Shown piece by piece: positions 4,430 to 61,313 of a stretch of 64,000 nt of DNA. The stretch comes from Anaerolineae bacterium. Its GTDB lineage: Bacteria > Chloroflexota > Anaerolineae > Anaerolineales > RBG-16-64-43. Each line of letters starts with the position of its first letter. The first letter of the stretch is position 1. The notes beneath the pieces are model-generated. The model had not been told where the DNA came from, did not search any database, and saw only the letters and a list, made by a program, of their open reading frames with translations. The stretch is from assembly GCA_003141675.1 (NCBI GenBank), contig PLND01000034.1:17488-81487 (forward strand), given 5' to 3'. A program made the translations under genes and the position numbers.

Positions 4430-5005
4430 ATGGAGGCTGAACGGGAGGAGGATCGCGCCTGGAAGGTCGTCCGCTCGGAGCCGGGGCCGGAATTGATCCT
4501 TTTCAAGACGCGTTTCGACTGGCTCGCCAATCCGCGCAATCAAAAGATCATGCGGGCGGTCATCCTTGAAGCCCGGGATTGGGTGAACGTGGTTGCGCTC
4601 ACACCGCAGGAGCGGATCGTCATGGTCAGCCAGTTCCGTTTTGGGGTCAGGCAACTCTCACTGGAAGTTCCCGCCGGGCTGGTCGATCCGGGGGAAACGC
4701 CGTTGCAGGCCGCCATTCGCGAGTTGGACGAGGAAACGGGATACACCGCGAGGGAATGGAAATCGCTCGGATGGTCCTTTCCCAACCCGGCGTTTCTAAA
4801 CAACCGCATGTACAACTTTCTCGCGCTGGACGCGCAACGCACACGCTCGCCGCATCCGGAGGACGGGGAAGACTTGGAGACTTTAGAGCTTTCACTCGAC
4901 GAAATCCAACATGCCATCCAAACGGACGGCATGCGAAACTCCAATACCCTGCTTGCCCTCGCGCGGGTTTTTGACCTGCGCGGGGAAAAGAATAGCATGG
5001 ATTGA
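4430..5005 (+). CDS. NUDIX hydrolase (ADP-ribose pyrophosphatase-like)
   Basis: 191 aa with Nudix box GLVDPGETPLQAAIRELDEETGY. Confidence 0.85.
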   Translation: MEAEREEDRAWKVVRSEPGPELILFKTRFDWLANPRNQKIMRAVILEARDWVNVVALTPQERIVMVSQFRFGVRQLSLEVPAGLVDPGETPLQAAIRELDEETGYTAREWKSLGWSFPNPAFLNNRMYNFLALDAQRTRSPHPEDGEDLETLELSLDEIQHAIQTDGMRNSNTLLALARVFDLRGEKNSMD

Positions 5006-5161
5006 TAACGCAGGGAATCAATCGATAACGATAAAAATACTTGCCATGCTAGTGTAATCACGGGCCTTCCGGCCGAGGAAAGGTTTCGTGGGGGCTGACA
5101 GAAGCCATAAAAGACGTCTCGCCCATTGATGGATGAAGCAACCGAAAAGGTGATGTTCGTC

Positions 5162-5235
5162 ATGCCCGCGTGCTCCAAGCGGGCATCTAGGAAAGGCCGT
5201 ACAGATCTGGATTCCCGCCGAGTACACGCGGGAAT
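5162..5235. repeat. two tandem REP-like hairpins (ATGCCCGC-N9-GCGGGCAT and ATTCCCGC-N9-GCGGGAAT)
   Basis: Two 8-bp GC-rich stems, each with a 9-nt loop, at 5162-5186 and 5211-5235. They lie in the 373-bp gap inside the F420 gene block. Confidence 0.6.
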
Positions 5236-5396
5236 GACAGCAGTCATAAAGCAATGTTGTGATCATTTGCGGGAGCGACATCCCACTCGATAATGGCCGT
5301 CATATTTACTTAATAAGGCGCGTGGTCTTTTAACCGGAAGAAACGCATAGTGTAGGCTTAGGAACAACTCCGGTACAATTGTTCCTGTGGAGCGCA

Positions 5397-5996
5397 ATGA
5401 CAATTAACATGAATATTATCTACACCAGACGATCGATTAGGAAATTCCGTCCCGATCCTGTGCCGGAAGATTCAACCCGGCGCTTGCTCGAAGCCGCAAA
5501 CGCCGCTCCCTCTGCGCATAACACGCGCCCATGGCGCTTCGTTGTTTTGCGGGATGCGGACGAACGTCGATTACTGGCTGAAGGGATGGCTGCAGCTTAC
5601 GCGCGCGACGCCCGCGCGGACGGGATGGATCCGGAGAAAATCCGCAGCCGCAATGAGCATTCGGTGGAACGAATTACAGGTGCGCCGCTGGCCATCCTCG
5701 CCTGCATGGACGAAGCTTGCGTTCCGGAAAATTCCGGCCGGAGTACGGAAGGGGAGCGGCTGCTGCTTACCCAAAGTGTGGCTGCTGCGGTGGAGAATCT
5801 TTTATTGGCTGCGGCCGATGAAAAATTGGGCGCATGTTGGTTATGTGCCCCCGCCTTTTGCCCGCAATCCGTCGCGGCAACGCTGGTGCTCCCGAAAAAT
5901 TGGATCGCCCAGGCATTGATCCTGATCGGGGTTCCAGCGGAAACGCCGGCAAAACCGAACGGGCATACTCTCGATGAGGTCGTGCAATGGCGCTAG
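5397..5996 (+). CDS. nitroreductase-family protein resembling the FbiB C-terminal (dehydro-F420-0 reductase) domain
   Basis: Nitroreductase-fold motifs IYTRRSIRKF and APSAHNTRPW. It sits between cofE and cofD and overlaps the cofD start by 10 nt. ATG 5397 is preferred because TTG 5379 lies within a hairpin. Confidence 0.7.
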   Translation: MTINMNIIYTRRSIRKFRPDPVPEDSTRRLLEAANAAPSAHNTRPWRFVVLRDADERRLLAEGMAAAYARDARADGMDPEKIRSRNEHSVERITGAPLAILACMDEACVPENSGRSTEGERLLLTQSVAAAVENLLLAAADEKLGACWLCAPAFCPQSVAATLVLPKNWIAQALILIGVPAETPAKPNGHTLDEVVQWR

Positions 5997-6946
5997 GGGA
6001 ATTTGACGATTGGAAGATCGTCGCACTGGCCGGCGGTGTGGGGGGCGCGAAATTGGCGCACGGACTGGCGCAGATTCTTCCGGCGGAAAACCTCACGGTC
6101 GTGGTCAACGTCGCCGACGATTTTGAACAGTACGGGTTGACCGTTTGTCCCGATCTGGATACGGTCATGTATACGCTGGCGGGGATCGCGGCGCGTGAAA
6201 CCGGTTGGGGGATCGAGGGAGATACCTTCCGGTGCATCGAAGCGCTCGCCAAGCTCGGCGCACCCGATTGGTTCCGTTTGGGCGACCGGGACCTGGCGAC
6301 GCACCTTGCGCGCACGCGTTGGTTATGGGATGGTGCGACACTCACCGATGCCACCCGACGGCTATGCGAATCCTTCGAAGTCCGGCAATCGATCCTCCCT
6401 TGTACGGACGACCTTTTACGGACGATCGTAGAGACGGATGAGGGCGACCTGGAATTTCAGGACTATTTCGTCCGCCGCAGGTTCGAACCCACAGTGCGCG
6501 GGTTCCACCTGCGCGGATTACCTGCGGCGCTTCCTTCGCGGGAATTTCTCGAGGCGCTGGACTCGGCGGATGCGACCGTGCTGTGCCCCTCCAATCCATT
6601 CGTGAGTCTGGGTCCGATTCTCGCTCTGCCGGGCGTGCGCGAGAAAGTGGCGGCCAAAGCTGCCGTGGCGGTTACGCCGATCATCGGCGGCCGGGCGGTC
6701 AAGGGGCCGTTAGCGAAGATGTTTCTCGAACTGGGCCGCGAGTCCTCCGCGGTCGAAGCGGCGCGCGAATACCGCGGGATCATCCGCGGGTTTCTCCTCG
6801 ACCGGCAGGATGTCTCGCGAAAGGAAGAAATCGAGGCGTTCGGCTTTCAAGTGAAGATCGCCGATACACTGATGGGCGACGATCTGCAAAGGAAGAATTT
6901 GGCCGCGGAAACTTTGCGCTTTATCCGAACGGGCTTATCGGGATGA
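5987..6946 (+). CDS. cofD: 2-phospho-L-lactate (or EPPG) transferase
   Basis: 319 aa. Motifs: ALAGGVGGAKLAHGL, DLDTVMYTLAG, LGDRDLATH. Confidence 0.9.
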   Translation: MALGEFDDWKIVALAGGVGGAKLAHGLAQILPAENLTVVVNVADDFEQYGLTVCPDLDTVMYTLAGIAARETGWGIEGDTFRCIEALAKLGAPDWFRLGDRDLATHLARTRWLWDGATLTDATRRLCESFEVRQSILPCTDDLLRTIVETDEGDLEFQDYFVRRRFEPTVRGFHLRGLPAALPSREFLEALDSADATVLCPSNPFVSLGPILALPGVREKVAAKAAVAVTPIIGGRAVKGPLAKMFLELGRESSAVEAAREYRGIIRGFLLDRQDVSRKEEIEAFGFQVKIADTLMGDDLQRKNLAAETLRFIRTGLSG

Positions 6947-7557
6947 AACGGTGGGTTATCGTTCCGGTTAAGCGGCTTACCGCCGCCAAGTCCCGTCTAT
7001 CGCCGGCGCTTTCAGTGCGGCAACGCCGGCTTCTTGCCCATGCGTTACTGAATCACACATTGAAAACCTTGCGCGGCTTGAACGGGATCGAGGGGATCCT
7101 GGTGGTTAGCAAGGATCGCGCGGTGCGTTCGATCGCCGGAAAATTCGGCGCGGTCTTCGTGCGCGAGGGGGATTGCGACGGTTTGAACCGGGCGTTGGCA
7201 CGGGCCACGGGCGAGGCCGTTGTGCGGGGAGCGGAGGCGGTGATGGTTCTTCCGGCCGATCTGCCGCTACTCCGGGCGCGGGATTTGGTGCGAGTTTTGC
7301 GCCAGGCCCGCCGTTCGCCGTTTGTGGTGATTGCACCGGATCGGGGAGAGCGGGGGACAAACCTGCTCTATCTTTCGCCTCCCGGGATCATAAAATTTTC
7401 CTTCGGCGAACGTTCATTCAAGAAGCATCTTCAATCGTCGCGCAGGAAAAAAATTCGCGTGAGCGTATTACGGACGTTGGCTTTTGCGCAAGATATTGAT
7501 CGTCCCGAGGATTTGTCAATCCTCCGCGATCCATTTCGGTTTCCGATACCGTTGTAA
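6943..7557 (+). CDS. cofC: phospholactate/phosphoenolpyruvate guanylyltransferase
   Basis: ATG 6943 overlaps the cofD stop (ATGA). MKRWVIVPVKRLTAAKSRL and LPADLPLL are typical of CofC/FbiD. The ORF-track start at 6583 is an upstream extension in the same frame. Confidence 0.85.
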   Translation: MKRWVIVPVKRLTAAKSRLSPALSVRQRRLLAHALLNHTLKTLRGLNGIEGILVVSKDRAVRSIAGKFGAVFVREGDCDGLNRALARATGEAVVRGAEAVMVLPADLPLLRARDLVRVLRQARRSPFVVIAPDRGERGTNLLYLSPPGIIKFSFGERSFKKHLQSSRRKKIRVSVLRTLAFAQDIDRPEDLSILRDPFRFPIPL

Positions 7558-9694: not shown

Positions 9695-10075
9695 CAGTTA
9701 CCTCCCTTCCCTTGAGATCCTACGACTCAAAATATATCCCGCCAAATTCTCTCGCCGCCTCTGACAAGCGGGCAGCGGGAAATTCGACGCGCCGCTGCGA
9801 CTTACCTAACTTTGCCCATGGAAGGCGGGGTTGATTCGGAGGTGACGAACCTGTCGCCTGTTGCGTATGCAGGAAGTGTATGATGTGCAAGCAAGCGGAT
9901 CTTTCGAAAGGAAAGCGAACTGCCCCAATAAAATGCTCCCTCCCGACCCGCGCGGAATTCTCGAGAAATCGGAGACGGAGGAAAGCCGTCGCGCCGGACC
10001 GATTTGGCAATCAGGGACTCGGCTCCGGTATAATGGCCCAAGATTCGTCTGAGGAGATGGTTGGGAGGATAACCG

Positions 10076-10567
10076 GTGATGGGTGTTCATCCCGCAAATG
10101 CGAGGCAAAAGCAACCGAATTCAAGAATGTGTTTCGTATGCGGCCTGGAAAACGAATCCGGCCTGCTCGCGAAATTCTACAACGAAGCGCCCGGCAAGGT
10201 GCGGGTGGATTGGACGGCGCCCGAATGTTACCAGGGATATCCGGGCCATTTGCACGGCGGGATCGCCGCCGCTCTTTTGGATGAAGCTGCCGGACGGACG
10301 GTCTTGGGAAGTGATCCGATGAGGTTATTTGTGACGATGAAGATGGAAATTCGCTACCGGAAACCCGTCCCGGTCGGCGTTCCCCTCGTGATTCGCGGTG
10401 AGATGATCCGCGACCGCGGGCGGTTCGCGGAAACCCGCGCGTCGATTCAACTTCCCGACGGAACTGTCGCAGTCGAAGCCGAAGTGCTGGTGGCAGAAGC
10501 GCCTGCGGAAATCACCAATATCACCGATCTGGACCGGATCGGCTGGCGCGTTTATCCGGAAGAATAG
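10076..10567 (+). CDS. PaaI-family hotdog thioesterase with N-terminal zinc-ribbon-like CxxC
   Basis: 163 aa. Motifs MCFVCGLEN and HLHGGIAAALLDEAAG. GGGAGGA lies upstream of GTG 10076/ATG 10079. Confidence 0.75.
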   Translation: MMGVHPANARQKQPNSRMCFVCGLENESGLLAKFYNEAPGKVRVDWTAPECYQGYPGHLHGGIAAALLDEAAGRTVLGSDPMRLFVTMKMEIRYRKPVPVGVPLVIRGEMIRDRGRFAETRASIQLPDGTVAVEAEVLVAEAPAEITNITDLDRIGWRVYPEE

Positions 10568-10770
10568 GAATTCCCCGTTCTCTTCTTCAGGAAATGGCAG
10601 CCGGAATTGGACACCACCGGGGATGTGCATTCTTTCGGGATGGAATTCAATTCGCAGTTGAATGTCCAAATTCGATTTAGAAAAACCTGGTATCCGCTCG
10701 GGATAAGGTAGAATTCCATTGGATGGTGCCCGCGAGGAAAGCGGCGTAGAACCATCCCAGGCAGAATACC

Positions 10771-11592
10771 ATGGGACGACCGAAAATTGTTTTTGACCTC
10801 CTGATGAAATTCTGGCCCCTGAGCAAGCTTGCCAACCGGCTCGGGAACCAGCCCGTGGTGGGATTCCTCGTCCGGCCGCTCTTCAGCAGCACGGAAAACG
10901 AATCCATTATTCTTCCGGTGCACGAGGCCGTCCGGGCCGAAGAGAGCGTTGTGCTTCCGCGCTCGCTCCTGGAACCGTTGATCGAAAAATCGGACGCGCG
11001 CGTGCTGTTGCATCGCTGCATCTGCCGCCACGCCGAGCATTGCCAGACCTATCCCGAAGAACTGGGGTGCCTGTTCCTGGGGGAGGGAGCGACTAGGATT
11101 CATCCATCCATGGGGCGATCGGTAAGTACGGAGGAGGCGCTGGCACACGCGCGCACGGCAATGGAGAAGGGCTTGGTTCCGCTGGTGGTGCATGCCTCGT
11201 TCGATGCGTTTGCACTGGGAATCCCTTATCGCAAGATGCTGGCTGTCTGTTTTTGCTGCGACTGCTGCTGCACCATCCGCCTCGGATTGCGGCTTGGCCC
11301 GCACGCGTTCTGGGATACGGTCGTGCGGGTTCCTGGTCTGACGGTGGAAGTGGGCGAGGATTGCATTGGATGCGGGCGCTGCACGGAGGTTTGTTACGTC
11401 CATGCTATCCAGGTGGAATATGGACACGCCCGGATCGACGATCATTGCAAGGGGTGCGGCCGATGCGCCGAAGAATGCCCGGTGCAGGCGATCACGCTTC
11501 GGTTGCACAAGGATGTGAACGTGCTGGAAGAGTTCCTCCAACGGGTGGAACGCAGGACCGACGTTGGTCAATTGGATGGAAAACCACGATAA
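10771..11592 (+). CDS. Cys-rich 4Fe-4S dicluster domain protein
   Basis: 273 aa. Two ferredoxin motifs (CIGCGRCTEVC, CKGCGRCAEECP) plus CICRHAEHC and CFCCDCCC clusters. The overlapping antisense ORF 10552..11571 is rejected. Confidence 0.7.
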   Translation: MGRPKIVFDLLMKFWPLSKLANRLGNQPVVGFLVRPLFSSTENESIILPVHEAVRAEESVVLPRSLLEPLIEKSDARVLLHRCICRHAEHCQTYPEELGCLFLGEGATRIHPSMGRSVSTEEALAHARTAMEKGLVPLVVHASFDAFALGIPYRKMLAVCFCCDCCCTIRLGLRLGPHAFWDTVVRVPGLTVEVGEDCIGCGRCTEVCYVHAIQVEYGHARIDDHCKGCGRCAEECPVQAITLRLHKDVNVLEEFLQRVERRTDVGQLDGKPR

Positions 11593-11879: not shown

Positions 11880-14273
11880 TTGGATATCGAGGCGGTGGAG
11901 AAAATGACGGATAAATCCAATCATCGGCGAAAGACCATTGGTGTTCTGATTAACTGGACGGTCGATTCATACCAGCAAATGTTCCTTGACGGAGTTATGG
12001 ATTGTGCCAGACAATCCGAGATGAGTTGCATTATTTTCGAGGGGGGAACCTTGAATAGCCCGCACGAATATGAAATGCAGCGAAATTTGATCTTCCCTTT
12101 GGCGAGCGAAAATACCGTCGACGGGTTGGTGATTCTTCCCACTTCCATCGGACTGTATACCGGCAAGGAAAAAATGAGGTCGTTTTGCGCGCAATTTAAT
12201 CCAACCCCTATGGTAAGCATCTCCATGGATTTTGAGGATATCCCCTCGGTGTTGATTGACAACCGGTCCGGAATGCGGGAGTTGATCGTCCATCTCATCG
12301 AGGAACATGCTTACCGCCGGTTTGCTTTCGTCGCCGGGCCGGCGGGGAATGAGGATGCCGAGCAACGGCAGGAAGTGTTTGACCAGGTTCTTCGGGAGCA
12401 TAAGACTCCGTTCGACCCCCGGTATTTCTTCCGAGGCGATTTTTCAATAAACTCGGGAATCGATGCGGCGAAATATTTTCTAGGGCAGGGAATCCAAAAT
12501 TGCGATGCGGTGGTCGTCGCCAATGACGGGATGGCTGTAGGGGTTATTAAGGAACTAACAAAAAGAAAGGTCCGGGTTCCCGAGCAGATCGCCGTCACTG
12601 GGTTTGACAATATCGATCTGGCCGGATCCTCGTCACTGTCGCTTACCACGGTAAAACATCCCATCTACGAACAGGGTTGGACGGCCACGAAACTGATCGC
12701 GGATCTCCTGGCGGGGAAAGAAGTTCCCCGGAAAACATATTTGCCCACGAGATTGGTTGTCCGCGAATCATGTAAATGCGTTTCCCCCTACGTTTCCTCC
12801 TTGGAATATAAAGGAGTTAATTCTGCGCATTCCGAAAGCTTCGGATCAGGGAGCATGGAGAGGAGATTTCCTCATATCCTGAAAATGCTGCAAAAACAAT
12901 ATTCAACCGTGATCCCTCGGGACCCCGGTGAACTGGGTCACAGCCCAACTGCAGTGTGTGAGGAAAAAACCGTCCTGGAAAATTCAGACTTATTGGCGAA
13001 ATGGTTGGACGAGGTTTCCATGAATTCGGGAGTGGACCGACTGGATTATGAAACTTTTCGGAGCATGGTGTACGAACTATGGCAAAACCGGACGGTTTCC
13101 GCGCCCGAATCCGCAAAATCGGTCAGGAACGAGGATCTAATTTTTCATACGATTATGAGACTTAGCCAGCAAGCCATTCAGAGGGAAAGGACACAAATTA
13201 TTGAGATTGCTCAGGAACGCCAGAAACTAGAATTGATCCAGGAATTGCTCACATTTATGGATATCCCCGGGCAAATGAGCGTCCTTGCCCGGCGTCTGCC
13301 GGACCTGGGGATCGCAAGTTGCTACCTATCATTTTATCGGGGGGATCCCTCCTTGGACAACGGCGAATCCGTTTGCATGCTAGGGATTCGGGATATGGAG
13401 CGGGTAAAAATCGGCGAGAAGGAAAAAGTATTTTCCACCAAGCGGCTTGTCCCGGATGATTTTCTCTCCGATCATAGACAGCACTTGTTGATTGTCGAGT
13501 CGCTGAGACAATTCGGTTTTGTGGTCTTTGAAATTGGGCCCAAATCCAGCGGTTTTGCCGCCCTCTTGAGCGAAATTATAAGTGGCGCCATGCAGGCCGC
13601 GATGTTGTTTGAGGAATTAAAGACTCAGAAGGATAACCTCTCCCGGAATCTGGAGAATATGCGCAAGGCCATGTCCGGGTTCATCCAAATGATGGCTTCG
13701 ACGGTGGAAGCGCGGGATCCGTACACCGCCGGCCATCAGCGCCGTGTTTCCGATTTGGCTCGGACCATCGCCCAGAAGATGAACCTGCCTCCGGCGCAGG
13801 TTGAAGGGGTGCGGATGGCGGGCATCATCCATGATCTTGGGAAGATCAATGTCCCCGCGGAAATTCTGAATCGCCCGGGAATACTCGACGACCTCGAATG
13901 GAGCATGATAAAAAGGCACCCCAAGGTCGCCTATGACATCCTGAAGAACATCGATTTCCCTTGGCCGATCGCGGAAATCGTCTATCAGCACCATGAACGG
14001 ATCAATGGCGGGGGATATCCCAATGGCTTGAAAGGGGATGCCGTCATTTTAGAGGCACGGATTCTCGCCGTGGCGGATGTGGTGGAAGCCATGTCATCTC
14101 ACCGGCCGTACCGTGATGCCTTGGGACTGGAAAAGGCGCTTGAGGAAATCAACAAGAACAAAGGAATTCTTTACGATCCAGTGGTGGTCGATGTCTGCAC
14201 CGACCTCTTTAAAAATAAAATGTTTGAATTCAGGACAACCGGCCATCTTGGTTCTTCACTTCGAAAAAATTGA
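11880..14273 (+). CDS. cytoplasmic LacI-type sugar-binding (PBP type I) domain fused to an HD-GYP phosphodiesterase domain
   Basis: 797 aa. The N-terminal ~300 aa look like a LacI-family ligand-binding core without an HTH (IGVLINW..., FAFVAGP, VVANDGMAVGVI, VTGFDN). The C-terminus carries HD-GYP motifs (GHQRRVSDLA, IIHDLGKINVP, HHERINGGGYP). TTG 11880 or ATG 11904. Confidence 0.85.
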   Translation: MDIEAVEKMTDKSNHRRKTIGVLINWTVDSYQQMFLDGVMDCARQSEMSCIIFEGGTLNSPHEYEMQRNLIFPLASENTVDGLVILPTSIGLYTGKEKMRSFCAQFNPTPMVSISMDFEDIPSVLIDNRSGMRELIVHLIEEHAYRRFAFVAGPAGNEDAEQRQEVFDQVLREHKTPFDPRYFFRGDFSINSGIDAAKYFLGQGIQNCDAVVVANDGMAVGVIKELTKRKVRVPEQIAVTGFDNIDLAGSSSLSLTTVKHPIYEQGWTATKLIADLLAGKEVPRKTYLPTRLVVRESCKCVSPYVSSLEYKGVNSAHSESFGSGSMERRFPHILKMLQKQYSTVIPRDPGELGHSPTAVCEEKTVLENSDLLAKWLDEVSMNSGVDRLDYETFRSMVYELWQNRTVSAPESAKSVRNEDLIFHTIMRLSQQAIQRERTQIIEIAQERQKLELIQELLTFMDIPGQMSVLARRLPDLGIASCYLSFYRGDPSLDNGESVCMLGIRDMERVKIGEKEKVFSTKRLVPDDFLSDHRQHLLIVESLRQFGFVVFEIGPKSSGFAALLSEIISGAMQAAMLFEELKTQKDNLSRNLENMRKAMSGFIQMMASTVEARDPYTAGHQRRVSDLARTIAQKMNLPPAQVEGVRMAGIIHDLGKINVPAEILNRPGILDDLEWSMIKRHPKVAYDILKNIDFPWPIAEIVYQHHERINGGGYPNGLKGDAVILEARILAVADVVEAMSSHRPYRDALGLEKALEEINKNKGILYDPVVVDVCTDLFKNKMFEFRTTGHLGSSLRKN

Positions 14274-14818
14274 AATAAACTTCCTCCCCTTCGCCGCGTT
14301 TTCCGGGAATCCTACCCGCGTCCGAAAAGCAATTTGAAGAATAACTCCCCCGCAAGAAATGAAAAACAACCAAGGTAAGCCCGCTGAAGAGGTTCGCTCA
14401 TCGTGGGCGGCTTAACGGGCAAGTCGTTTTCCCCCAAGCGCACGTTTTATTAATGGTCTTTGATTAAATCATGCGATGGTGTTCCGATGGGACCTACGGG
14501 CTTCAGGTATTTTTCCGACGGCTCCCATTCTCAGGAGGGGGGTTTAGAGTTATCGGTGGATTCTAAGTGCGCAGACTCCCTCGGCGGCCTCATCCTCCAG
14601 TTCGGCTCCAGTCACTACCTCTGAAACGTGTCATCGAATGGATTCCGTGCGGTCGGACACTGTGCCAGCAGAGTGTTTCGCGTCCTCCCGCTAAACCGGT
14701 AAATAATGGACGGAACCTACGAAAGGTATCCATTCGTCCGGGTTCCAACGCCTTGGCAGATTCTCTGTAACTTATTTGGTCATGTGGAAGGAAGAATCGA
14801 ATAAATCGCTTTTCCTAC

Positions 14819-14847
14819 TTGCCATGGTGGGAATATTGATATATACT
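14819..14847 (+). promoter_or_regulatory. candidate sigma-70 promoter of the dcw cluster (Pmra)
   Basis: TTGCCA (14819-14824), a 17-bp spacer, then TATACT (14842-14847), about 85 nt upstream of the mraZ ATG. Confidence 0.55.
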
Positions 14848-14882
14848 GTGGGCAATAGTGGAAATCAATGGAAAGTTGTGGA
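14827..14882 (+). promoter_or_regulatory. candidate MraZ operator: phased [G/A]TGG[G/A] direct repeats
   Basis: GTGGG 14848, GTGGA 14858, ATGGA 14868 and GTGGA 14878 sit at exact 10-bp spacing just downstream of the -10 box. One more GTGGG lies at 14827. Confidence 0.55.
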
Positions 14883-14933
14883 TTAAATCACCGGCCAGTC
14901 CGGTGTATGTTTTTAAAATAGGAAAACGAACAT

Positions 14934-15374
14934 ATGTTCTTGGGTGAGTATTCTCATTCGTTAGACGAGAAAGGCCGGGTGACCATCCCGGCCAAACTCC
15001 GCGCCGGTTTTGCCAATGGTTTGGTCATCACCCGCGGGTTCGAACCGTGTTTGGTCGTATACCCCGTCGAAACCTTCCGTGCCCTCGAGCAGAAAGCCCA
15101 CTCCCTTAGTTTAACCGATCCCTCCAATCGGTCAATCTTCCGTTTGTTATTCGGCGGCGCTTCCGACGCCGCGTTGGATAGCTTGGGCCGGGTCGTCGTC
15201 CCCGAGTACCTCCGCACCTACGCCGGTTTCCAGAGCCAGGTGGTCGTGGTCGGGGCGGGCCAATATCTCGAAGTCTGGGACGTCGAGAAGTGGAATGCGC
15301 AACTGGCACAGCTCAACGACTCGGAAGCCAACGCCCGACGATTCGCGTCCTTGGATCTCGCCACCGGACCTTGA
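14934..15374 (+). CDS. mraZ: transcriptional regulator MraZ
   Basis: 146 aa. MFLGEYSHSLDEKGRVTIPAKLR and a second SpoVT-AbrB half (LDSLGRVVVPEYLR). Confidence 0.95.
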   Translation: MFLGEYSHSLDEKGRVTIPAKLRAGFANGLVITRGFEPCLVVYPVETFRALEQKAHSLSLTDPSNRSIFRLLFGGASDAALDSLGRVVVPEYLRTYAGFQSQVVVVGAGQYLEVWDVEKWNAQLAQLNDSEANARRFASLDLATGP

Positions 15375-25424: not shown

Positions 25425-27791
25425 ATGCGCTATCACTTCGTAGGTATCGGCGGATCGGGGCTTTCGGCGATCGCCCGGGTTCTCCTGGAACGTGGCGAGA
25501 TGGTGAGCGGTTCCGATATGGCGGAGTCACCGTTTGTGGATTCCCTTCGCGATATGGGCGCGCAGGTGACCATCGGTCACGCGGCGGAGAATGTGCGCGG
25601 CGCGGGGGCGGTGATCGCCTCCTCGGCGGTAAAGTCCGACAATGTCGAGCTAGTTGAAGCCCGCGCCTTGGGGCTTCCGGTCTACAAGCGTTCCGAGTTC
25701 CTCGGCCCGCTCACGGAAGGGAAACGCACAGTGGCTGTCGCCGGAACGCACGGAAAGACGACCACCACCGGCGAGATCGCGCTGCTCCTGACGCGCGAGG
25801 GATTGGATCCGACTTTTATCGCCGGCGGCGCGCTTTCCGATTTCGGCGGGGCCAACGCCCGCGCCGGGCAGGGTGAATACTTTGTCATCGAAGCCGACGA
25901 ATACGACCACGCCTTCCTCGGGCTTTCCCCGTGGATCGCGGTGGTGACCAATGTCGAGCACGATCACCCGGACTGCTATCCGACCCCGGAGGATTACGAC
26001 CGGGCGTTCGGTCAGTTCCTGGAGCGCATGCGGCCCGACGGTTCGGTGGTGGTGTGTGCGGATTCCCCGGGTGCGATCCGAGTAGTGGAGGAATACTGCC
26101 GAAACAAGCCGGAACTCTCGGTATATTCCTACGCAGTGAACATGGAAGCGGATTGGCAGGCAACCCAGATCCAGCCCCACACCGAGGGAGGAAGCGATTT
26201 CCTTGTGGTGCGCCACGGTGAAGTAATGGGTCGAGTGCGGATCCGGCTCGCCGGATTACATAACGTCTGCAATTCGCTGGCTGCTTTATGTGCGGCGGAC
26301 CTGTGCGGGATTCCCTTTGCGCATGCCGCGAAATCCCTCTCGCAGTACCACGGAGCGGAACGGCGGTTCGAGATCAAGGGAGAAGCGGGGGGCGTAACGG
26401 TGGTGGACGATTACGGGCATCACCCGAGCGAGATTCGGGCGACCCTGGCGGCTGCGCGCCAGCGTTTTCCGCAGCGCCGCATTTGGGCTCTTTGGCAGCC
26501 GCACACCTATTCTCGCACGCGCGCCCTGGCGCACGAATTTTCACAGGCCTTTGCGGATGCCGACCGCGTGGTGGTGCTCCCGGTTTATCAGGCGCGGGAG
26601 CCGCTCGACGAAACGTTCCCGATCGAGGAGGTTGTGCGGACCATGCTAAACACCGAGGCGCAATATATTCCCGGAATGATGGAAGCCGTGCCATACCTGA
26701 CCCGCGAACTGCGGCGCGGAGACGTACTGGTCATGCTCAGTGCGGGAGACGCCAACCGTGTGGGCGAGGAAGTGTTGCGCCGGCTGCGCCTGATCGAGGC
26801 CGAGCACCGCGCGCCGATCCGCGTCCCGATCCTGCCGCTGGAAAAATTGCACCGGCGGTTCGAAACCCTTCTGCAGGAAGAGGTTCCGCTCGGACGGCTT
26901 AACACCGCCAAGGTCGGCGGGCTGGCCGACGCGCTGGTGGAAGCGCACAGCGCGGGCGAATTGGCCTCGGCAGCGGAATGGCTCTGGCAGGAGGATATCC
27001 CCTTCTTCGTCCTCGGCGCGGGATCGAACATCTTGTTCTCGGATTTGGGCTGCCGGGATTTGGTGCTCTTCAACCGGGCCAAGAAGTTCGAGCTCCGGGT
27101 GGGGGAAAACGGATCGAAAGACACCGCCGTGCTGTGGGCGGAATCCGGCACATCGATCGGAGCGATCGCGCGCCAGGCGGCGCAGATGGGTTGGACCGGT
27201 CTGGAATGGGCGGCGACCGTCCCTGGAACGGTCGGCGGGGCGGTGGTGGGCAACGCCGGCGCGTTCGGGGGCGATACCTCGGGGACGCTCAGGATGGTCG
27301 AAATCTTGCAACGAGAGGAAGCGGACAAACCAGCCCAATTCCGGGCCGAGAGGAAAACGCTCCGGCCGGAGGAAATGGGCTTTGGATACCGTTCCAGCCT
27401 GCTGCGGAAGAACCCCGGGCAGGCCGTCGTGCTCTCCGCGGAGTTCGCGTTGCGGCGCTGCGATCCATCGGAAGCCGTTGCGCGCATCGGCCAATTTCTC
27501 GCCCGGCGCAGGGAAACCCAGCCGTCGGGGTCTTCCCTGGGGTCGATGTTTAAAAATCCGCCGGGAGATTATGCCGGGAGGCTGATCGAAGCCGCCGGAT
27601 TGAAAGGACACCGAATGGGCAACGCGGAAATTTCACGCCAGCATGCAAACTTCTTTATCAACCTTGGCGACGCAAAGGCGGAGGACATCCGCGCCCTGCT
27701 GGACCTCGCACGGAAAATGGTCCGCGAGAAGTTCGGCGTCGACCTGGAACCGGAAATCATTTTGGCCGGGGATTGGCCGGAGAAGGCGTAA
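25425..27791 (+). CDS. murC: bifunctional UDP-N-acetylmuramate--L-alanine ligase / UDP-N-acetylenolpyruvoylglucosamine reductase (MurC-MurB fusion)
   Basis: One uninterrupted 788-aa ORF. The N-terminal half is MurC (HFVGIGGSGLSAIA, GTHGKTTTT, DDYGHHPSEI). The C-terminal half is MurB (LGRLNTAKVGGLAD, FFVLGAGSNILFSD, GSMFKNPPGDYAGRLIE, ISRQHANFFINLG). Confidence 0.9.
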   Translation: MRYHFVGIGGSGLSAIARVLLERGEMVSGSDMAESPFVDSLRDMGAQVTIGHAAENVRGAGAVIASSAVKSDNVELVEARALGLPVYKRSEFLGPLTEGKRTVAVAGTHGKTTTTGEIALLLTREGLDPTFIAGGALSDFGGANARAGQGEYFVIEADEYDHAFLGLSPWIAVVTNVEHDHPDCYPTPEDYDRAFGQFLERMRPDGSVVVCADSPGAIRVVEEYCRNKPELSVYSYAVNMEADWQATQIQPHTEGGSDFLVVRHGEVMGRVRIRLAGLHNVCNSLAALCAADLCGIPFAHAAKSLSQYHGAERRFEIKGEAGGVTVVDDYGHHPSEIRATLAAARQRFPQRRIWALWQPHTYSRTRALAHEFSQAFADADRVVVLPVYQAREPLDETFPIEEVVRTMLNTEAQYIPGMMEAVPYLTRELRRGDVLVMLSAGDANRVGEEVLRRLRLIEAEHRAPIRVPILPLEKLHRRFETLLQEEVPLGRLNTAKVGGLADALVEAHSAGELASAAEWLWQEDIPFFVLGAGSNILFSDLGCRDLVLFNRAKKFELRVGENGSKDTAVLWAESGTSIGAIARQAAQMGWTGLEWAATVPGTVGGAVVGNAGAFGGDTSGTLRMVEILQREEADKPAQFRAERKTLRPEEMGFGYRSSLLRKNPGQAVVLSAEFALRRCDPSEAVARIGQFLARRRETQPSGSSLGSMFKNPPGDYAGRLIEAAGLKGHRMGNAEISRQHANFFINLGDAKAEDIRALLDLARKMVREKFGVDLEPEIILAGDWPEKA

Positions 27792-34591: not shown

Positions 34592-35314
34592 TCAGAAATT
34601 TTTCGAGAGACGGCTTTCCCAGATCCACTTGCGCTGTGCCATTGCCGAAGGGTCGTTTACCGTCATCAACTGTTCCACGAACGCCTCCTCTGGATAGGCG
34701 CCCTCGATGCGCAGCACTTCGTTGATCACAATGAGCGGAACGGTGCTCACCATGTAGCGGTTCACCAGGTGGGGGAATTCCATGCATTCGACCATATCCG
34801 ACCGGATCAAGTCGTTTGCCAGAGCCAGCTTATGCGCGAGCAGCACGGCCCGCGGACAGTGCGGTCAGGTAGGTGTGGTAAATACCTGGATGTGCACCGG
34901 TTCGTGAATCTTTGAAATCTGGTCCAGGGTGTTGGCGGTCAACCCGTGCTGTCGCTTGCTCACCAGCAGAAGATCTTCGACCAGGGTGCTGAATTCGAAT
35001 CCACCAGGAATGCCGTAAAGACGAATACCGTAATCCCGCGGGGAGGGGCCGTCATTCATGATTGCGAGGGCCGGAATTTTATCCACGTGCATTTTTTCCG
35101 CGAGCGCAGTATCCGCCATGAAGTCGCGAACCTCCAGGCGGATTTTCCCGTTAAGCGATGCAACCTCTTCCGCCAATTCCCTGTCTTCTGAGCACGTATG
35201 GCATTCCGGAACGCCCCCGTGTCCCTGGGTGAACATGACCAGCCGGACCGGCTGATCCATTCCCTCAAGGATCTTTTGCACTTCGTTCCGGGTGGATTCG
35301 TCCAAGAGCGGCAT
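34592..35314 (-). CDS. two-domain thioredoxin-fold protein (PDO/glutaredoxin-like) with an in-frame TGA at 34865-34867; candidate selenoprotein
   Basis: ORFs 34865..35314 and 34592..34846 share one frame. Read-through gives ...PECHTCSE...IQVFTTPT-[TGA]-PHCPRAVLLAHKLALAND...VPLIVIN... AAGGAGG lies upstream of ATG 35314. Confidence 0.55.
34831..34858 (-). promoter_or_regulatory. candidate bacterial SECIS hairpin
   Basis: In the RNA after UGA, a 7-bp G/C-rich stem (CGCGGGC/GCUCGCG, with one G.U pair) encloses the loop CGUGCU, which contains GU. The apex lies about 20 nt downstream of UGA. Confidence 0.35.
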
Positions 35315-35403
35315 GTCCCCTCCTTTGGCCGGGCGATGGTTTCCCCGAAGAATATAGTCTATAGCGAGTGGTTCTTTAATTTACCAATATTATTTTACAC
35401 CAA

Positions 35404-40867: not shown

Positions 40868-41025
40868 ATGCCCGTCTATACGCCATCCCGCATTTCGGGT
40901 GCAGCAAAGGTGGGTGTGATCCTGTGGGAACGCCCCGAAAAAGAAGGATGGCAGTTCGTCCCTCAGGGCGCGTCACCAGGGGGTGGCGCGCCCGATCGTT
41001 TTTTTATACGATAACGGGCTCAATC

Positions 41026-41667
41026 ATGCAGGAAGAAAAAACCGCCTCTCACCTGTTTTCCGATCCGAGAAGGACTCCCGTGAAGTTAAATCCGGACAGG
41101 GAAGGTGCTTCTTTGTATCCGATTGCCGGTGTGGAAAAAAAGGATGGACCGGTCCAGAAGTTGCTGAAAGATTCCGCCATAGAGGAGTTGCAACTGCAGG
41201 TACAGAAACCGCAGCGTCTGACCGCCGTGGATCTCGGTGGGATCGTTACCCGGGGGGTGACGATGCTTTCGGCGATGTCCGCCGAACTTGGCGTGGTCCT
41301 GCGAATCCGCATTCGGAGTGATAGCGTTCCGGTTCAGGGGGATTTTGAAAAAATCCACCGGTCGATTATTGCGTTGATCATCCATCTCCTTACGATCTCC
41401 CAATCCCAAGCATGCGTCACCGTCATCGTGGAAAGCCGGATGCAAAACGGAAAGCGGGGGATGTCCGTCCGATTATCCGCCAACCGTGTGATCGGACCCT
41501 GGAAATCGGACTCGGGTGCGAATGATGATTTCGCCAATCCGGAGGAAGTAACAGCCTGCCGGCTTCTTCTGGAAAAGAACGGGGGGAGCCTGTCGGTTCA
41601 ACCGGAAGAGGAGGAGGGACAAGCCTTTTTGGTTTGGCTTCCTCTCAAAGGGCCCCGCGGGAGATAG
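41026..41667 (+). CDS. hypothetical protein with a degenerate histidine-kinase-like ATPase (HATPase_c) C-terminal domain
   Basis: The C-terminus LLLEKNGGSLSVQPEEEEGQAFLVWLPLK and the upstream VDLGGIV...VQGDFEKIHRSIIALIIHLL resemble an HK catalytic domain. The N and G1 boxes are not recognisable, and no DHp/His box is seen. Confidence 0.4.
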   Translation: MQEEKTASHLFSDPRRTPVKLNPDREGASLYPIAGVEKKDGPVQKLLKDSAIEELQLQVQKPQRLTAVDLGGIVTRGVTMLSAMSAELGVVLRIRIRSDSVPVQGDFEKIHRSIIALIIHLLTISQSQACVTVIVESRMQNGKRGMSVRLSANRVIGPWKSDSGANDDFANPEEVTACRLLLEKNGGSLSVQPEEEEGQAFLVWLPLKGPRGR

Positions 41668-53831: not shown

Positions 53832-55016
53832 TCATCCAACTTTTTTCCAAGCATAGGCTAGTGCCTCATCGGTGCTATCCAATACCTCCGCCCCGAGCGC
53901 CTGTAGCGCCGCGCGTTTTTCGCCGCCCGTTGCCACACCCAGGAACGACACGCGGATGTTCAAGCCCTTCCGGTTAAGAAGATCGACCGCGCTTTGAGTG
54001 GCAAGCACCCCGGTCGGCGAATCCTCGAAGACCACGATGTCGGCAGTTTCTTGCTTCCATGCATCCAACGGAGGAAGCAATTTCCCTTCCTCTACCAGCG
54101 CGCGCGCGGATTCCAGCCCGTCGCTCTCTTCCGCGCCCAGCGCCAGGGCGAGGGCGGCCAGGGAATGAGTCGGATTGGGCTTGAGGTAGGCGTCCGGTTG
54201 TTGTTCGTGCCGTTTGGCCAACCAGAGCATTTGCCCGGCGCCGACCAGCGGAAGTTCCTCCAACCCGATTACCTTTAGTGCGATCTCCGCTTCGGGAGGA
54301 AATTCCGTCGGATCGTCGACGGCGCCGCGCGGCCGGCAGGGGCGGGCGGTGATGATCGCAGAGCGGATCCGCTTCTGGCGGTGCATTGCCAGAATCTTTT
54401 CGCGAGCGGCGGTGGAAATCGCCGGCTGGTCCAATTCCGCCAGCAGGGAAGCGGTCTCGACGTCCGGGGGAACGTGGTACAGATCGGCGTACAACCGGCT
54501 GCCGAGCGTGTACTGCTGGAAGTAGCGCATCACCGGCGAGCGCGCAAACTCGCGCGGATGGCCCAGCAGAACATCCAGCAGCCCGTCGAATTCTCCCACC
54601 CGGTCGATGTCCACCTCCGCGTGTCCCGCTTCCTGCCGGAAGATTTTGGCGGCCGAAAGGGAAGGGGATTCGCCGCCCAACGCCCCGGTGCTCCGTGCCC
54701 ACTCGGCATATTCCGGCTCCGGGCGCTCGAGGCTCTCTTTTTGAAGCATGATCATAGCCCGGGAGAGGTCGGCGGGCAGGTTCAGATCCGGATTGGCGCG
54801 CCAGATTGCGAACGCATCGGCCGCGGCGCAGATCCCGGCGATATCCCATTCGCAGGTGATGCCCTGTGCCTCGAACGCTTCGATCGTAGATTCTTCCAGC
54901 GGCCTTTCCGGATTGCCCATCTGATGCGAGAAGTGCGCGACCGTCCGGCGCAGCGCCTTGCGGTACCCGCCCGGATGGATCAGCACCCCGTCCAAATCGA
55001 AAAGCCACAGGTTCAT
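53832..55016 (-). CDS. HAD-superfamily hydrolase with a large cap insertion
   Basis: ATG 55016 overlaps the hisIE stop (ATGA). HAD motif I FDLDGVL, a LKPNP-type motif III and FEDSPTG as motif IV. About 200 aa are inserted after motif I. Confidence 0.75.
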   Translation of the reverse strand: MNLWLFDLDGVLIHPGGYRKALRRTVAHFSHQMGNPERPLEESTIEAFEAQGITCEWDIAGICAAADAFAIWRANPDLNLPADLSRAMIMLQKESLERPEPEYAEWARSTGALGGESPSLSAAKIFRQEAGHAEVDIDRVGEFDGLLDVLLGHPREFARSPVMRYFQQYTLGSRLYADLYHVPPDVETASLLAELDQPAISTAAREKILAMHRQKRIRSAIITARPCRPRGAVDDPTEFPPEAEIALKVIGLEELPLVGAGQMLWLAKRHEQQPDAYLKPNPTHSLAALALALGAEESDGLESARALVEEGKLLPPLDAWKQETADIVVFEDSPTGVLATQSAVDLLNRKGLNIRVSFLGVATGGEKRAALQALGAEVLDSTDEALAYAWKKVG

Positions 55017-55618
55017 TTGTGCCGCCTCGAGAGCTCGGCTTCCACATCCGCCAGGCCCAACCCGCGCGCGGCAAGCAGAACCAGCGTGTGATAAATCAAG
55101 TCGGCGGCCTCGCATACGACCCGCTCATCGCTCTCTCCCAGCGCCGCGACGATCGTTTCGGTGGATTCCTCGCCAACCTTCTGGGAGATTTTTGGCAAGC
55201 CTTCGCGAAACAGGCCGCTGGTGTAGGATTCTTCTTTGGGATTCGATTTCCGGTCGTGAATCACTTCGTCCAGTGTGTGCAAAAAACCTGCGGAAGCATC
55301 CTGCGTTTGCCCCGCGACGTGCGTGTGGAAACATGAGCGCTCGCCGGTGTGACACGCCGGCCCGGCAGGGATCACATGCAGGAGGACCGCATCCGCGTCG
55401 CAATCCAATGCCACCTCCATGACCCGCATCGTATTACCGGAGGTTTCGCCCTTGCGCCAGAGTTTGTTGCGTTCACGGCTCCAGAAGTGCGCTTCCATCA
55501 TGCCGAGCGTTTTCTGCCAGGCCTCCGCGTTCATCCAGGCCAGCATCAGCACTTCGCCTGTGCGCGCATCCTGCGCGACGGCCGGGATCAGACCTTGATC
55601 GTTGTATTTGGGTTCCAT
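55013..55618 (-). CDS. hisI: bifunctional phosphoribosyl-AMP cyclohydrolase / phosphoribosyl-ATP pyrophosphatase
   Basis: 201 aa. HisI part: GLIPAVAQD, WSRERNKLWRKGETSGN, CHTGERSCF. HisE part: LDEVIHDRK, EAADLIYHTLVLL. Confidence 0.92.
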   Translation of the reverse strand: MEPKYNDQGLIPAVAQDARTGEVLMLAWMNAEAWQKTLGMMEAHFWSRERNKLWRKGETSGNTMRVMEVALDCDADAVLLHVIPAGPACHTGERSCFHTHVAGQTQDASAGFLHTLDEVIHDRKSNPKEESYTSGLFREGLPKISQKVGEESTETIVAALGESDERVVCEAADLIYHTLVLLAARGLGLADVEAELSRRHK

Positions 55619-58694: not shown

Positions 58695-58782
58695 GACCTA
58701 ACCCTCTCACCCCTTTCCCTCTCTCCCTTCCCTTAAGGGAAGGGAGAGAGGGTGGCCGAAGGCCGGGAGTGAGGGTTAGGTC
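58695..58782. repeat. G/C-tract inverted-repeat element (hisDC|hisB junction)
   Basis: Termini GACCTAACCC...GGGTTAGGTC. The core CCCTCTCTCCCTTCCCTT/AAGGGAAGGGAGAGAGGG is a perfect palindrome. The right terminus contains the hisD-hisC stop codon. Confidence 0.8.
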
Positions 58783-61208
58783 ATCGTCTCCAATGCTTCC
58801 ATCAACGCGTCGGTATCCCGCGGGCGGCCGACCGAGATGCGCAGGCAATCGCGCAACCCTTGGCGGTCGAAATAGCGCACTAGAATCCCGCGCTTTTTAA
58901 GGTCGCTCTGCACCGCCCGCGCATCGCGGCCCGTCAGCCGGCACAGGAAAAAATTGGACCGGCTGGGATACACCTTCATCCACGGAAGGGTCTGCAGCCG
59001 AGCAAACATCCTTTCGCGTTCGGTGACGATCTTCCGAAAGGTTTTAGCCAACGCATCATAATCGTCCAGGGAAGCCATGGCCGCCTGGTAAGCCGCCGCA
59101 TTGACGTTGTAAGGCTGCTTCATCGTCATCATCCGGCCCATCAAGCATTGCGGGAAGACGCCATACCCGACGCGCAAACCCGCCAGCCCGGCCCATTTGC
59201 TGAAGGTGCGCAACACCGCCAGATTGTCGTATTCCAGCGTCCAGCGGATCCGGCTGCCGCCCGAGAATTCGATATAGGCTTCGTCCAGAACCATGAGCAC
59301 CGGCAAGGCCAGCAGCCGGCGAAGAGCCTCATCGGGCACGATGCTGCCGTCAGGATTGTTCGGCGAACACACAAAGATGATTTTCGCCCGCGGCTCGGCG
59401 CGCACCGCCGCTTCGATTCGCTCCACGTCGAGCGAGAAATCCGTTTTGCGTTCGACCCGCAGCATCCGGCCGCGATGCACGCCGGTGGAGAACGAATACA
59501 TCCCGAAGGTCGGCGGGCAGTCGATCACCGCGTCGCCCTCGGCAAGCACCGCGCTCATCACCACGTCGATCGGCTCATCCGCGCCGGCGCCGGTGAATAT
59601 CCGCTCCCAGGGAAGGTCGAGGAATTCCGCCAGACGTTTGCGCAGCAGCGTATTCTGCGGGTCCGGATAGATGCTGAAGTATTTTCCTTCGGCCACCTTT
59701 TCCAGCGCGCGCTTGGACATGCCGTACGGGTTTTCGTTCGCATCGAGCTTGACGATTTTCTTGGAAGATTTTCCGAACTGCGCGGCGAAAACCTCGTACG
59801 GGATCACCGCGGCGTAGGCTTCCGGTTCACCGCCCCGGGGGAGAAATCGCAATCGCTCACGATCCCCGGCCGCCGCCGGAGTGGAATGTACGCTGCGAAG
59901 GCGGGCGGCTTCGGCGTGCGAGTCCAACCCTTCGGCGCGGGCAATCGTTTCCGCGTGCGGGCTGATCGCCGCGGCCGTTTTTTCATCCAGCGCGATGAGG
60001 TTGGTGAGGCGCACGAAATCCAGCACGCTCAGCGGCGAGGCGAAGCGCGCCGTCCCGCCGGTCGGCATCACGTGGCTCGGCCCGGCGGTGTAATCGCCCA
60101 GGACTTCAAAGGAACGCTCCCCCAGGAATAATCCTCCCGCACTGCGGATGCGCCCTTTCCAAGCGTCCGGATCGGCAACTGAAAGGCACATGTGCTCGGG
60201 CGCGTATTCATCGGCGGCGCTCACGGCACTCTCGAGATCCGGCGTCAGGACGATTCCGCCCTGGCCCGAGAACGAGGCGGCGATGATCTCCGCCCTCGAG
60301 CGATTTTCGATTTGGCGGGCGACTTCCGCCTGAACCTTCTCCGCCAAGGCGCGCGAAGGTGTCAGCAGGATCGCGGTGGCGAGCCGGTCGTGCTCGGCTT
60401 GAGCCAGGAGATCTCCCGCCACCCAGGACGGGTTGGCGTTTTCGTCCGCGATCACCACCGTTTCGGTCGGCCCGGCCAGTCCGTCCAGTCCGACGATGCC
60501 GAACACCTGCTGCTTGGCCAGCGTGACGAAAATATTCCCGGCGCCTACGATTTTATCCACCCGCGGAATGCTCTGCGTGCCATATGCCAGCGCGCCGATC
60601 GCCTGCGCTCCGCCGATCCGGTAGAGCGCGCCGGCCTGGGCCAGATAAGCGCAGGCCAGTACGACATCCGGAACTGCGCCGGTTTCCCTGCCGGGCGGGG
60701 TGACCACGACCACTTCCTCGACGCCCGCCACATTGGCCGGGATGACCGACATCAGGAGCGATGACGGCAGAGGTGCGCTGCCACCCGGCACATAGACACC
60801 GACTCTTCGAAGCGCCGTGGCCTGTTGCCCGAGCACGCCGCCCAAATCGCGGGTTGTCCAATTAGGAATCGGCTGGCGCGTATGAAAGGCACGGATGCGT
60901 TCGGCGGCAAGGTTCAACGATTGCCGCAAGTCTGCCGGGATGCGTTCGTAGGCGGCTTGCCATTCGGCAGCCGGCACCAGCGGATCGTCGATCCTCCGAA
61001 GGTCGATTTTTTCCGTCCAGCGCGCGATCGCGTCGTCGCCATTTTCGCGCACGTCCGCCAGGATCCGCCGCACCGCCTCGGCGGGGGTCACTCCCTCGCC
61101 GAACACCAGCGCAAGGCTCTCCCGCAGCGCGGTGGGAATCTCTTCGCCCTGCGGTTTTCGTTTCAATATTGTCCGCCTGGCTTCCGCCAGGTCCATAATT
61201 TGGAGCAT
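58776..61208 (-). CDS. hisD: fused histidinol dehydrogenase / histidinol-phosphate aminotransferase (HisD-HisC)
   Basis: Single ORF of 810 aa from ATG 61208, with AAGGGAGGA upstream. The N-terminal half is HisD (VYVPGGSAPLPSS, GGAQAIGALAYGT, AQAEHD). The C-terminal half is HisC (KLDANENPYG, DEAYIEF, TFSKWAGLAGLRVGY). Confidence 0.9.
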   Translation of the reverse strand: MLQIMDLAEARRTILKRKPQGEEIPTALRESLALVFGEGVTPAEAVRRILADVRENGDDAIARWTEKIDLRRIDDPLVPAAEWQAAYERIPADLRQSLNLAAERIRAFHTRQPIPNWTTRDLGGVLGQQATALRRVGVYVPGGSAPLPSSLLMSVIPANVAGVEEVVVVTPPGRETGAVPDVVLACAYLAQAGALYRIGGAQAIGALAYGTQSIPRVDKIVGAGNIFVTLAKQQVFGIVGLDGLAGPTETVVIADENANPSWVAGDLLAQAEHDRLATAILLTPSRALAEKVQAEVARQIENRSRAEIIAASFSGQGGIVLTPDLESAVSAADEYAPEHMCLSVADPDAWKGRIRSAGGLFLGERSFEVLGDYTAGPSHVMPTGGTARFASPLSVLDFVRLTNLIALDEKTAAAISPHAETIARAEGLDSHAEAARLRSVHSTPAAAGDRERLRFLPRGGEPEAYAAVIPYEVFAAQFGKSSKKIVKLDANENPYGMSKRALEKVAEGKYFSIYPDPQNTLLRKRLAEFLDLPWERIFTGAGADEPIDVVMSAVLAEGDAVIDCPPTFGMYSFSTGVHRGRMLRVERKTDFSLDVERIEAAVRAEPRAKIIFVCSPNNPDGSIVPDEALRRLLALPVLMVLDEAYIEFSGGSRIRWTLEYDNLAVLRTFSKWAGLAGLRVGYGVFPQCLMGRMMTMKQPYNVNAAAYQAAMASLDDYDALAKTFRKIVTERERMFARLQTLPWMKVYPSRSNFFLCRLTGRDARAVQSDLKKRGILVRYFDRQGLRDCLRISVGRPRDTDALMEALETMT

Positions 61209-61227
61209 CCGTCCTCCCTTGCTTACC

Positions 61228-61313
61228 TGACCCCCTAACCCTTGCACCCCTTCTCCCCTCGAGGACTGGCCTTAAGGGAAGGGGGGAAGGGGATGGGGAT
61301 GAGGGGTTAGGTC
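61228..61313. repeat. G/C-tract inverted-repeat element (hisG|hisDC junction)
   Basis: Termini TGACCCCCTAACCC...GGGGTTAGGTC, with CCCCTTCTCCCCTC / GGGGGGAAGGGG-type arms. The right terminus contains the hisG stop codon. Confidence 0.7.

Follow-up and report, generated by a model that had tools for sequence, protein, structure and literature searches.

A predicted selenocysteine-containing protein disulfide oxidoreductase gene of Anaerolineales that public annotations split at an in-frame TGA

On the minus strand of a 64,000-nucleotide stretch of DNA from an Anaerolineae bacterium (assembly GCA_003141675.1, contig PLND01000034.1, positions 17,488 to 81,487; this whole stretch is hereafter called the window), two open reading frames (ORFs) of thioredoxin-fold type are set apart by a TGA codon and a handful of sense codons. 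Is this TGA a stop, or does it encode selenocysteine (Sec) within one continuous gene? Our analysis indicates that positions 35314 to 34592 very probably constitute a genuine selenoprotein gene, which encodes a single functional Sec-containing protein disulfide oxidoreductase (PDO). Judged by its sequence, the gene carries every hallmark of the TIGR02187 selenoprotein family and is an unannotated member of that family, not a new kind of selenoprotein. Its parts are the following.

34592..35314, minus strand: whole gene with two thioredoxin-fold units, one frame of 240 codons with a single internal TGA
35319..35325, minus strand: Shine-Dalgarno sequence AAGGAGG, 5 nucleotides (nt) 5' of the ATG at 35314-35312
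35192..35203, minus strand: N-terminal redox motif C38-H-T-C41; C38 and C41 are invariant in our alignment A1
34865..34867, minus strand: in-frame TGA, codon 150, predicted Sec at the nucleophilic first position of the C-terminal U-P-H-C
34856..34867, minus strand: C-terminal active-site motif U150-P-H-C153; P151, C153 and P154 are invariant in A1
34835..34854, minus strand: core of a predicted bacterial selenocysteine insertion sequence (bSECIS), with a 7-bp stem (34848-34854 with 34835-34841) and a 6-nt apical loop, CGUGCU (34842-34847)
34592..34594, minus strand: true gene terminator, also TGA; the stop at this place in relatives is TGA, TAG or TAA

The upstream ORF (34865..35314, 149 amino acids (aa), ATG start) and the downstream ORF (34592..34846, 84 aa, GTG start) lie in a common frame, and between them stand only the TGA at 34865-34867 and the six sense codons CCG CAC TGT CCG CGG GCC. 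The first-pass annotation of this DNA had described the shared frame, the TGA with its six codons and a CHTC site in the N-terminal half, and all of these were found in place. Read-through of the TGA yields the product ...VHIQVFTTPT-U-PHCPRAVLLAHKLA.... The sequence leading into the ATG, ...GGCCAAAGGAGGGGAC-ATG, contains the Shine-Dalgarno sequence, whereas none precedes the internal GTG at 34846.

When Cys was put in place of the TGA, the protein matched the NCBIfam model TIGR02187 (PDO_seleno_TRX, protein disulfide oxidoreductase) with 251.6 bits against a cutoff of 185, the match spanning protein residues 6-218 and positions 2-208 of the 209 in the model. Pfam gave a Thioredoxin_3 match on the C-terminal half. 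The protein also aligns end to end with the Pyrococcus PDO structures 1J08 (P. horikoshii, E=1e-41) and 1A8L (P. furiosus, E=8e-39); according to this sequence alignment, residues 8-218 correspond to two tandem thioredoxin-fold units, with CHTC in the N unit, opposite the CQYC of the Pyrococcus proteins, and UPHC in the C unit. Further full-length alignments were obtained with the PDOs of Aquifex aeolicus (2AYT/2YWM) and Aeropyrum pernix (2HLS), in which the TGA again stands opposite the first Cys of the C-unit CPYC. These hyperthermophile PDOs thus have the same two-unit architecture, with CxxC in the N unit and xPxC in the C unit, and can be aligned with the gene product residue for residue. 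They differ from it in having Cys (CPYC) where the window gene would have Sec (UPHC) and in their archaeal or Aquifex hosts, and the identity is moderate (E=1e-41 to 6e-23).

The N-terminal ~200 residues of AhpF (1HYU, 1ZYN) also adopt this double thioredoxin fold, with a weaker match (E around 1e-6). However, AhpF has a C-terminal FAD/NAD(P)H thioredoxin-reductase-like domain (about 520 aa), whereas the gene product here ends at 240 aa. Since the protein lacks a reductase domain and scores only 76 bits with the AhpF model TIGR03140, far below the cutoff of 502.9, it is not AhpF and that identity was rejected. The Sec-containing thioredoxins and glutaredoxins of the UxxC type (Deltaproteobacteria, Clostridia, Treponema) likewise have Sec for the nucleophilic first Cys and a bSECIS within the coding region, but they are single-domain proteins of other families (PF00085, PF00462).

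The TGA is not peculiar to the window. A search of a 5.8-billion-protein collection returned 13 closest proteins (82-94% identity), all of them called at about 149 aa (one at 153) and ending in ...FTTPT. Their contigs, which come from JGI, ENA, NCBI and Logan, all continue with TGA-CCG-CA[CT]-TG[TC] (TGA-PHCPRAV...) and an open frame of 90-93 codons. They have a common gene order: 7TMR-HD ... MalT-like, Sua5, PDO, NIL, YdjC, methyltransferase and FtsZ-FtsA-FtsQ-Ddl-MurC/B. The closest full-length Cys forms, P0001 and P0002 (65-67% identity), are likewise flanked by Sua5 and the NIL gene; because they share this Sua5-PDO-NIL-YdjC neighbourhood, they form orthologous Cys/Sec pairs with the TGA-type genes. 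A metagenome scan with a single protein as query gave only 5 loci.

We then compared 79 relatives, one genome per species and nearly all Chloroflexota. As the active-site codon, 9 of these species-representative genomes have TGA, 43 have TGC and 27 have TGT, and on a rough neighbour-joining tree the TGA-type genes fall in at least 7 places among the Cys-types. Codon 150 stands opposite the first Cys of TPTCP[YH]CP in the 70 Cys-type genomes, as it does in 1J08 and 1A8L. The earlier proposal that the TGA sits at the nucleophilic Cys of a C-terminal CxxC is therefore borne out, and the Cys/Sec pairs that it suggested looking for were found at exactly this column, the same-neighbourhood orthologs included. 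The TGA, an open downstream frame and the position of the hairpin described below recur in all 16 TGA-type relatives. None of the homologs that are called as ending at ...TPT lacks an open, conserved downstream domain, which runs for 71-93 further codons in these 16 genes. Amino-acid identities among the TGA-types reach down to 76%, and the flanking synonymous differences vary among assemblies.

Whether the sequence after the TGA is translated was addressed through its pattern of substitution, by pairwise Nei-Gojobori comparison of 8 distinct TGA-type genes of the window's clade. The ratio of non-synonymous to synonymous substitution rates (dN/dS) lies between 0.03 and 0.21 after the TGA and between 0.08 and 0.20 before it, with dS above 1 in some pairs. 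The six codons from the TGA to the GTG at 34846, Cys153 among them, show 0-3 synonymous and 0 non-synonymous differences. The two stops of the gene also behave differently. The internal codon is TGA in 16 of 16 TGA-type genes, whereas the terminal stop is TGA in 10, TAG in 5 and TAA in 1, and varies even inside the window's own clade. As the internal TGA is never exchanged for TAA or TAG while the real terminator is, it behaves as a sense codon. These substitution patterns indicate that the sequence after the TGA is translated and is under purifying selection. A genome-wide reassignment of TGA was considered and rejected: TGA closes 12 of the 34 window genes, the TGA-containing PDO gene included, and as a normal stop on this scale it excludes a reassigned code. 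A crude scan of the window for other TGA-interrupted genes gave no convincing candidate.

If the UGA is decoded as Sec, a bSECIS is expected within the coding sequence that follows it. In the published bSECIS model, as laid out in PMC13188914, the loop has 3-9 nt, the upper stem 4-16 bp, a G (usually then G/U) lies in the first two loop positions, the distance from UGA to loop is 16-37 nt and the minimum free energy is -7.5 kcal/mol or lower. The first-pass annotation had pointed to a hairpin at 34831-34858 with a GU-containing loop about 20 nt past the UGA, and this hairpin is indeed present, a weak 3-bp lower stem lengthening the core to these limits. It folds at -10.6 kcal/mol with 17 nt between UGA and loop; with the U of UGA as nt 1, the loop starts at nt 21, and it has GU at its positions 2-3. 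All of these values lie within the model, as judged by comparison with the published criteria. At -6.4 and -6.7 kcal/mol, the folds of the closest Cys orthologs fall short of the model.

Five of the seven stem pairs rest on synonymous third codon positions, and it is at these that TGA-type and Cys-type genes part. In a fixed pairing register, six contiguous pairs are formed in 14 of 16 TGA-type genes versus 1 of 70 Cys-type genes. With a movable register, 16 of 16 TGA-type genes, among them L063 (loop CGUGC) and L079 (loop GGUC), have a perfectly paired stem of 6 bp or more, a loop that opens exactly at nt 21 and a G as the first or second loop base. Cys-type hairpins are scattered, and a stem at nt 21 occurs in only 3 of 72; the Cys-types mostly carry CGC/CGT and CTG at the relevant codons, and the stem is broken. 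A compensatory change from G17-C30 to A17-U30 was seen in L030 and L039, which have Gln-CAA and Leu-CUU versus CAG and CUG in Cys-types. The position of the hairpin is thus specific to TGA-type genes.

We also looked for the Sec-decoding genes themselves. The 1.49 Mb of fetched DNA was scanned with ARAGORN and with tblastn, the latter using E. coli SelA, SelB and SelD queries and serving as a lead only. The scan revealed selD in just two loci, L067 and L076, and no tRNA-Sec. In L067 (Thermoflexus) selD lies at 2724-3782, 7 kb from a Cys-type PDO; its counterpart in L076, an 'Eisenbacteria' metagenome-assembled genome (MAG), lies at 13925-14980, 9 kb from a TGA-type PDO. Both genes read ...SCAG-TGA-ASK, SelD itself being a selenoprotein there. 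Four further SelD loci are also of the Sec type, one of which (L113) belongs to an NCBI-labelled Anaerolineales MAG. From the Sec-type SelD of L076, L067 and L113 it follows that Sec decoding is present in the class Anaerolineae and accompanies a TGA-type PDO in at least one genome. For the window's own genome, we infer that selA, selB, selC and selD are present.

All six SelD genes examined (L067, L076, L103, L108, L111, L113) have the form ...[TS]L[AS]SCAG-TGA-A[SGA]K..., and gene callers shorten them to about 320-330 aa. Those of L103, L108, L111 and L113 lie at about 9860-10980, and L108 also has selA at 4768-6108.

Several results weigh against a selenoprotein gene at this locus. Neither the 64-kb window (in which ARAGORN found only a tRNA-Leu and 20 ORFs were scanned with NCBIfam) nor any fetched locus of the window's own clade contains selA, selB, selD or tRNA-Sec, and no SelD could be tied, either by the accession route or through the contigs P0163, P0167, P0214 and P0238, to the same MAG or sample as this clade. 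Folded as a single sequence, the hairpin region does not differ significantly from shuffled sequences (z -0.18, -0.87 and -1.66 for stretches of 81, 28 and 20 nt). The energy of the best hairpin downstream of the codon does not set the two gene types apart (Mann-Whitney p=0.92), since GC-rich coding sequence is prone to folding in any case; this generic energy test was superseded by the fixed-position tests given above. Rfam gave no match, either for the whole window at the gathering threshold or, with E values up to 10 allowed, for 34700-34950. Covariation in the TGA-type set is thin, amounting to one compensatory pair in two sequences plus one G-U/A-U pair. Finally, the literature lists the family as predicted and not as experimentally verified.

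These points have to be set against what the other explanations would require. If the TGA were a real stop, the locus would be a split gene or pseudogene, with only a 149-aa N-terminal unit and perhaps a separate 84-aa C-terminal unit translated from the GTG at 34846. All public annotations take this view of the gene, and no Sec machinery was found in the window. Yet the 84-aa product would begin inside the active-site motif, without the first active-site residue and without a Shine-Dalgarno sequence before its GTG, and the six codons ahead of that GTG, which include Cys153, vary only synonymously. In 16 genes from at least 7 lineages the internal stop shows no turnover to TAA or TAG, whereas the terminal stop does turn over, and the fixed-position hairpin occurs only in TGA-type genes. 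A pseudogene, for its part, would not hold a downstream dN/dS near 0.1 at dS above 1. We regard a true stop at codon 150 as extremely unlikely. A sequencing or assembly error at a TGC or TGT codon, which a single-base change would turn back into Cys, had been raised as a doubt at the outset. The same TGA is present in more than 10 independent JGI, ENA, NCBI and Logan assemblies, with differing synonymous flanks and identities down to 76%, and an error is therefore effectively refuted.

Read-through of the UGA without selenium we also consider highly unlikely. A near-cognate or suppressor tRNA would here put in Cys, Trp or Gly at low yield and the hairpin would only slow termination; the conserved downstream frame and the hairpin would be accounted for as well, and no Sec machinery was found in the window. 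The hairpin, however, fits the bSECIS specifically, with its early G[G/U] loop motif and 17-nt spacing, and the UGA falls exactly on the redox Cys of a family known for Cys/Sec exchange. In one TGA-type genome, a Sec-type selD is located 9 kb from the PDO gene. Moreover, such read-through would be inefficient at an essential catalytic residue and a one-base change from TGA to TGY would fix it, yet the TGA persists. Taken together, the Cys/Sec pairs, the selection downstream, the fit to the bSECIS model and the listing of the family among selenoproteins support the original proposal of a UxxC selenoprotein of the PDO/glutaredoxin-like type.

How such a gene would be expressed and what its product would do can be outlined from bacterial Sec decoding and from the disulfide chemistry of the Pyrococcus, Sulfolobus and Aquifex PDOs and of the AhpF N-terminal domain. 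We infer the actual insertion of Sec, the catalytic cycle and the redox partner from these analogies. Translation would start at the ATG behind the strong Shine-Dalgarno sequence, and the UGA at codon 150 would not be read as a stop. The hairpin, which begins 11 nt 3' of the UGA, would act as a bacterial SECIS and recruit SelB-GTP-Sec-tRNA(Sec); with this complex bound to the loop and the UGA occupying the A site, Sec150 would be inserted, and a ~27-kDa protein would be completed at the next TGA. Sec150 is predicted to serve as the exposed nucleophile where the active-site helix begins, in the U-P-H-C of the C-terminal thioredoxin fold. There it would cycle between a selenolate/thiol form and a selenenylsulfide with Cys153, thereby reducing or isomerising substrate disulfides, and electrons may be passed on by the CHTC unit. 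For archaeal and Aquifex PDOs, as for the AhpF N-terminal domain, the re-reducing partner is of the thioredoxin-reductase type. Re-reduction of the protein proposed here would probably also be carried out by a partner of this type, encoded elsewhere; no redox partner gene was found in the immediate neighbourhood of the PDO gene.

The repeated appearance of the Sec form raises the question of how it arises. It is possible, if somewhat doubtful, that the PDO active-site helix has a built-in tendency to switch between Cys and Sec. Most of a bSECIS in the right place is already written into the conserved peptide P-[RQ]-A-V-x-L-A: the amino-acid sequence dictates two of the seven stem pairs, and at the hairpin position the Cys-type genes have 4.0 of 7 pairs on average. 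Because so much of the element is given by the peptide, a change from TGY to TGA, together with two or three synonymous substitutions, would suffice for a working selenoprotein gene. Such a predisposition would explain the at least 7 places on the tree, the constant hairpin position and the hairpins that persist in Cys-type sisters. Alternatively, one ancestral Sec form could have been followed by many Sec-to-Cys losses, or the gene could have been transferred horizontally.

The Cys-type sisters deserve a note of their own. L045, the Cys-type sister of the Sec-type L054, has an intact hairpin (about 10438-10480) with an identical stem-loop sequence, and in L020/L024, Cys-type sisters of L009, the hairpin (about 10447-10490) is partly decayed. 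These look like 'fossil' SECIS elements, and their retention in Cys-type sisters is consistent with recent Sec/Cys exchange.

The family itself has been described before. According to Zhang et al., it was first seen in Carboxydothermus and Symbiobacterium, and the same authors record the Sec trait in some Chloroflexi. Reviews of 2022 and 2026 give the family as TIGR02187 with a UxxC motif and one Sec, and the later of the two counts it among those "predicted with high confidence". The members from Carboxydothermus hydrogenoformans (ABB15282.1) and Symbiobacterium thermophilum resemble the window gene in NCBIfam family, UxxC motif and single Sec, and it is by family and motif that we liken them; they are likewise computational predictions from Cys/Sec pairs and a bSECIS. 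The hosts differ, being peat and soil Anaerolineales (Chloroflexota) here and Firmicutes/Symbiobacterium there. In the present case, the Sec form occurs in at least 7 places on the rough Chloroflexota PDO tree, with the hairpin always at the same position.

In public databases the gene appears in pieces. NCBI lists a 149-aa 'hypothetical protein' (for example MGD0806071.1, MGD0174996.1 and HEY5118316.1), and JGI a 149-aa 'alkyl hydroperoxide reductase subunit AhpF' together with a separate 84-aa Thioredoxin_3 ORF; this split recurs over loci L001-L019. It is therefore repeated across a widespread clade of peat and soil Anaerolineales, and at least 9 of the 79 sampled genomes have the TGA form. 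Mending the annotation would give back a complete redox enzyme. The corrected gene would also mark its hosts as selenium users, which bears on the size of the selenoproteome and on the selenium demand of peatland Chloroflexota. Lying in a single gene neighbourhood and having hairpins that are intact, shifted or in decay, the Sec and Cys orthologs offer a natural series for the study of Sec/Cys exchange and of SECIS birth and decay under coding constraint. Our understanding of the Sec-decoding mechanism and of the PDO family itself is unchanged.

The remainder of the window encodes RtcB, an F420 biosynthesis cluster, a dcw cell-wall/division cluster, a his operon and one tRNA-Leu. The coenzyme F420 cluster (2874-7557, plus strand) consists of npdG (F420 reductase), cofE, cofD and cofC, all above their NCBIfam cutoffs. 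Two gene fusions were noted: a MurC-MurB fusion of 788 aa (25425-27791, plus strand) in the dcw cluster, which is kept in L001 and L016 and is two genes in L012, and an 823-aa HisD-HisC fusion (58776-61247, minus strand; histidinol dehydrogenase and histidinol-phosphate transaminase) in the his operon with hisG, hisA and hisF. A 797-aa ORF (11880-14273, plus strand) combines a LacI/CytR-type sugar-binding domain, with no obvious helix-turn-helix match at its start, and an HD-GYP/HDIG phosphodiesterase-like C-terminus. The RtcB RNA ligase (92-1543, plus strand) matches best the C-terminal part of the 'intein-containing RtcB' model, with 653 bits and below the cutoff of 1150, and looks like a relative of that subfamily without an intein. 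Four ORFs of 235-427 aa have no NCBIfam match: 4540-5247, 10552-11571 and 53832-55115 on the minus strand and 40924-41667 on the plus strand. Some of these long unmatched ORFs may be spurious in a sequence of 59% GC; for example, a ferredoxin-like ORF on the other strand overlaps the one at 10552-11571.

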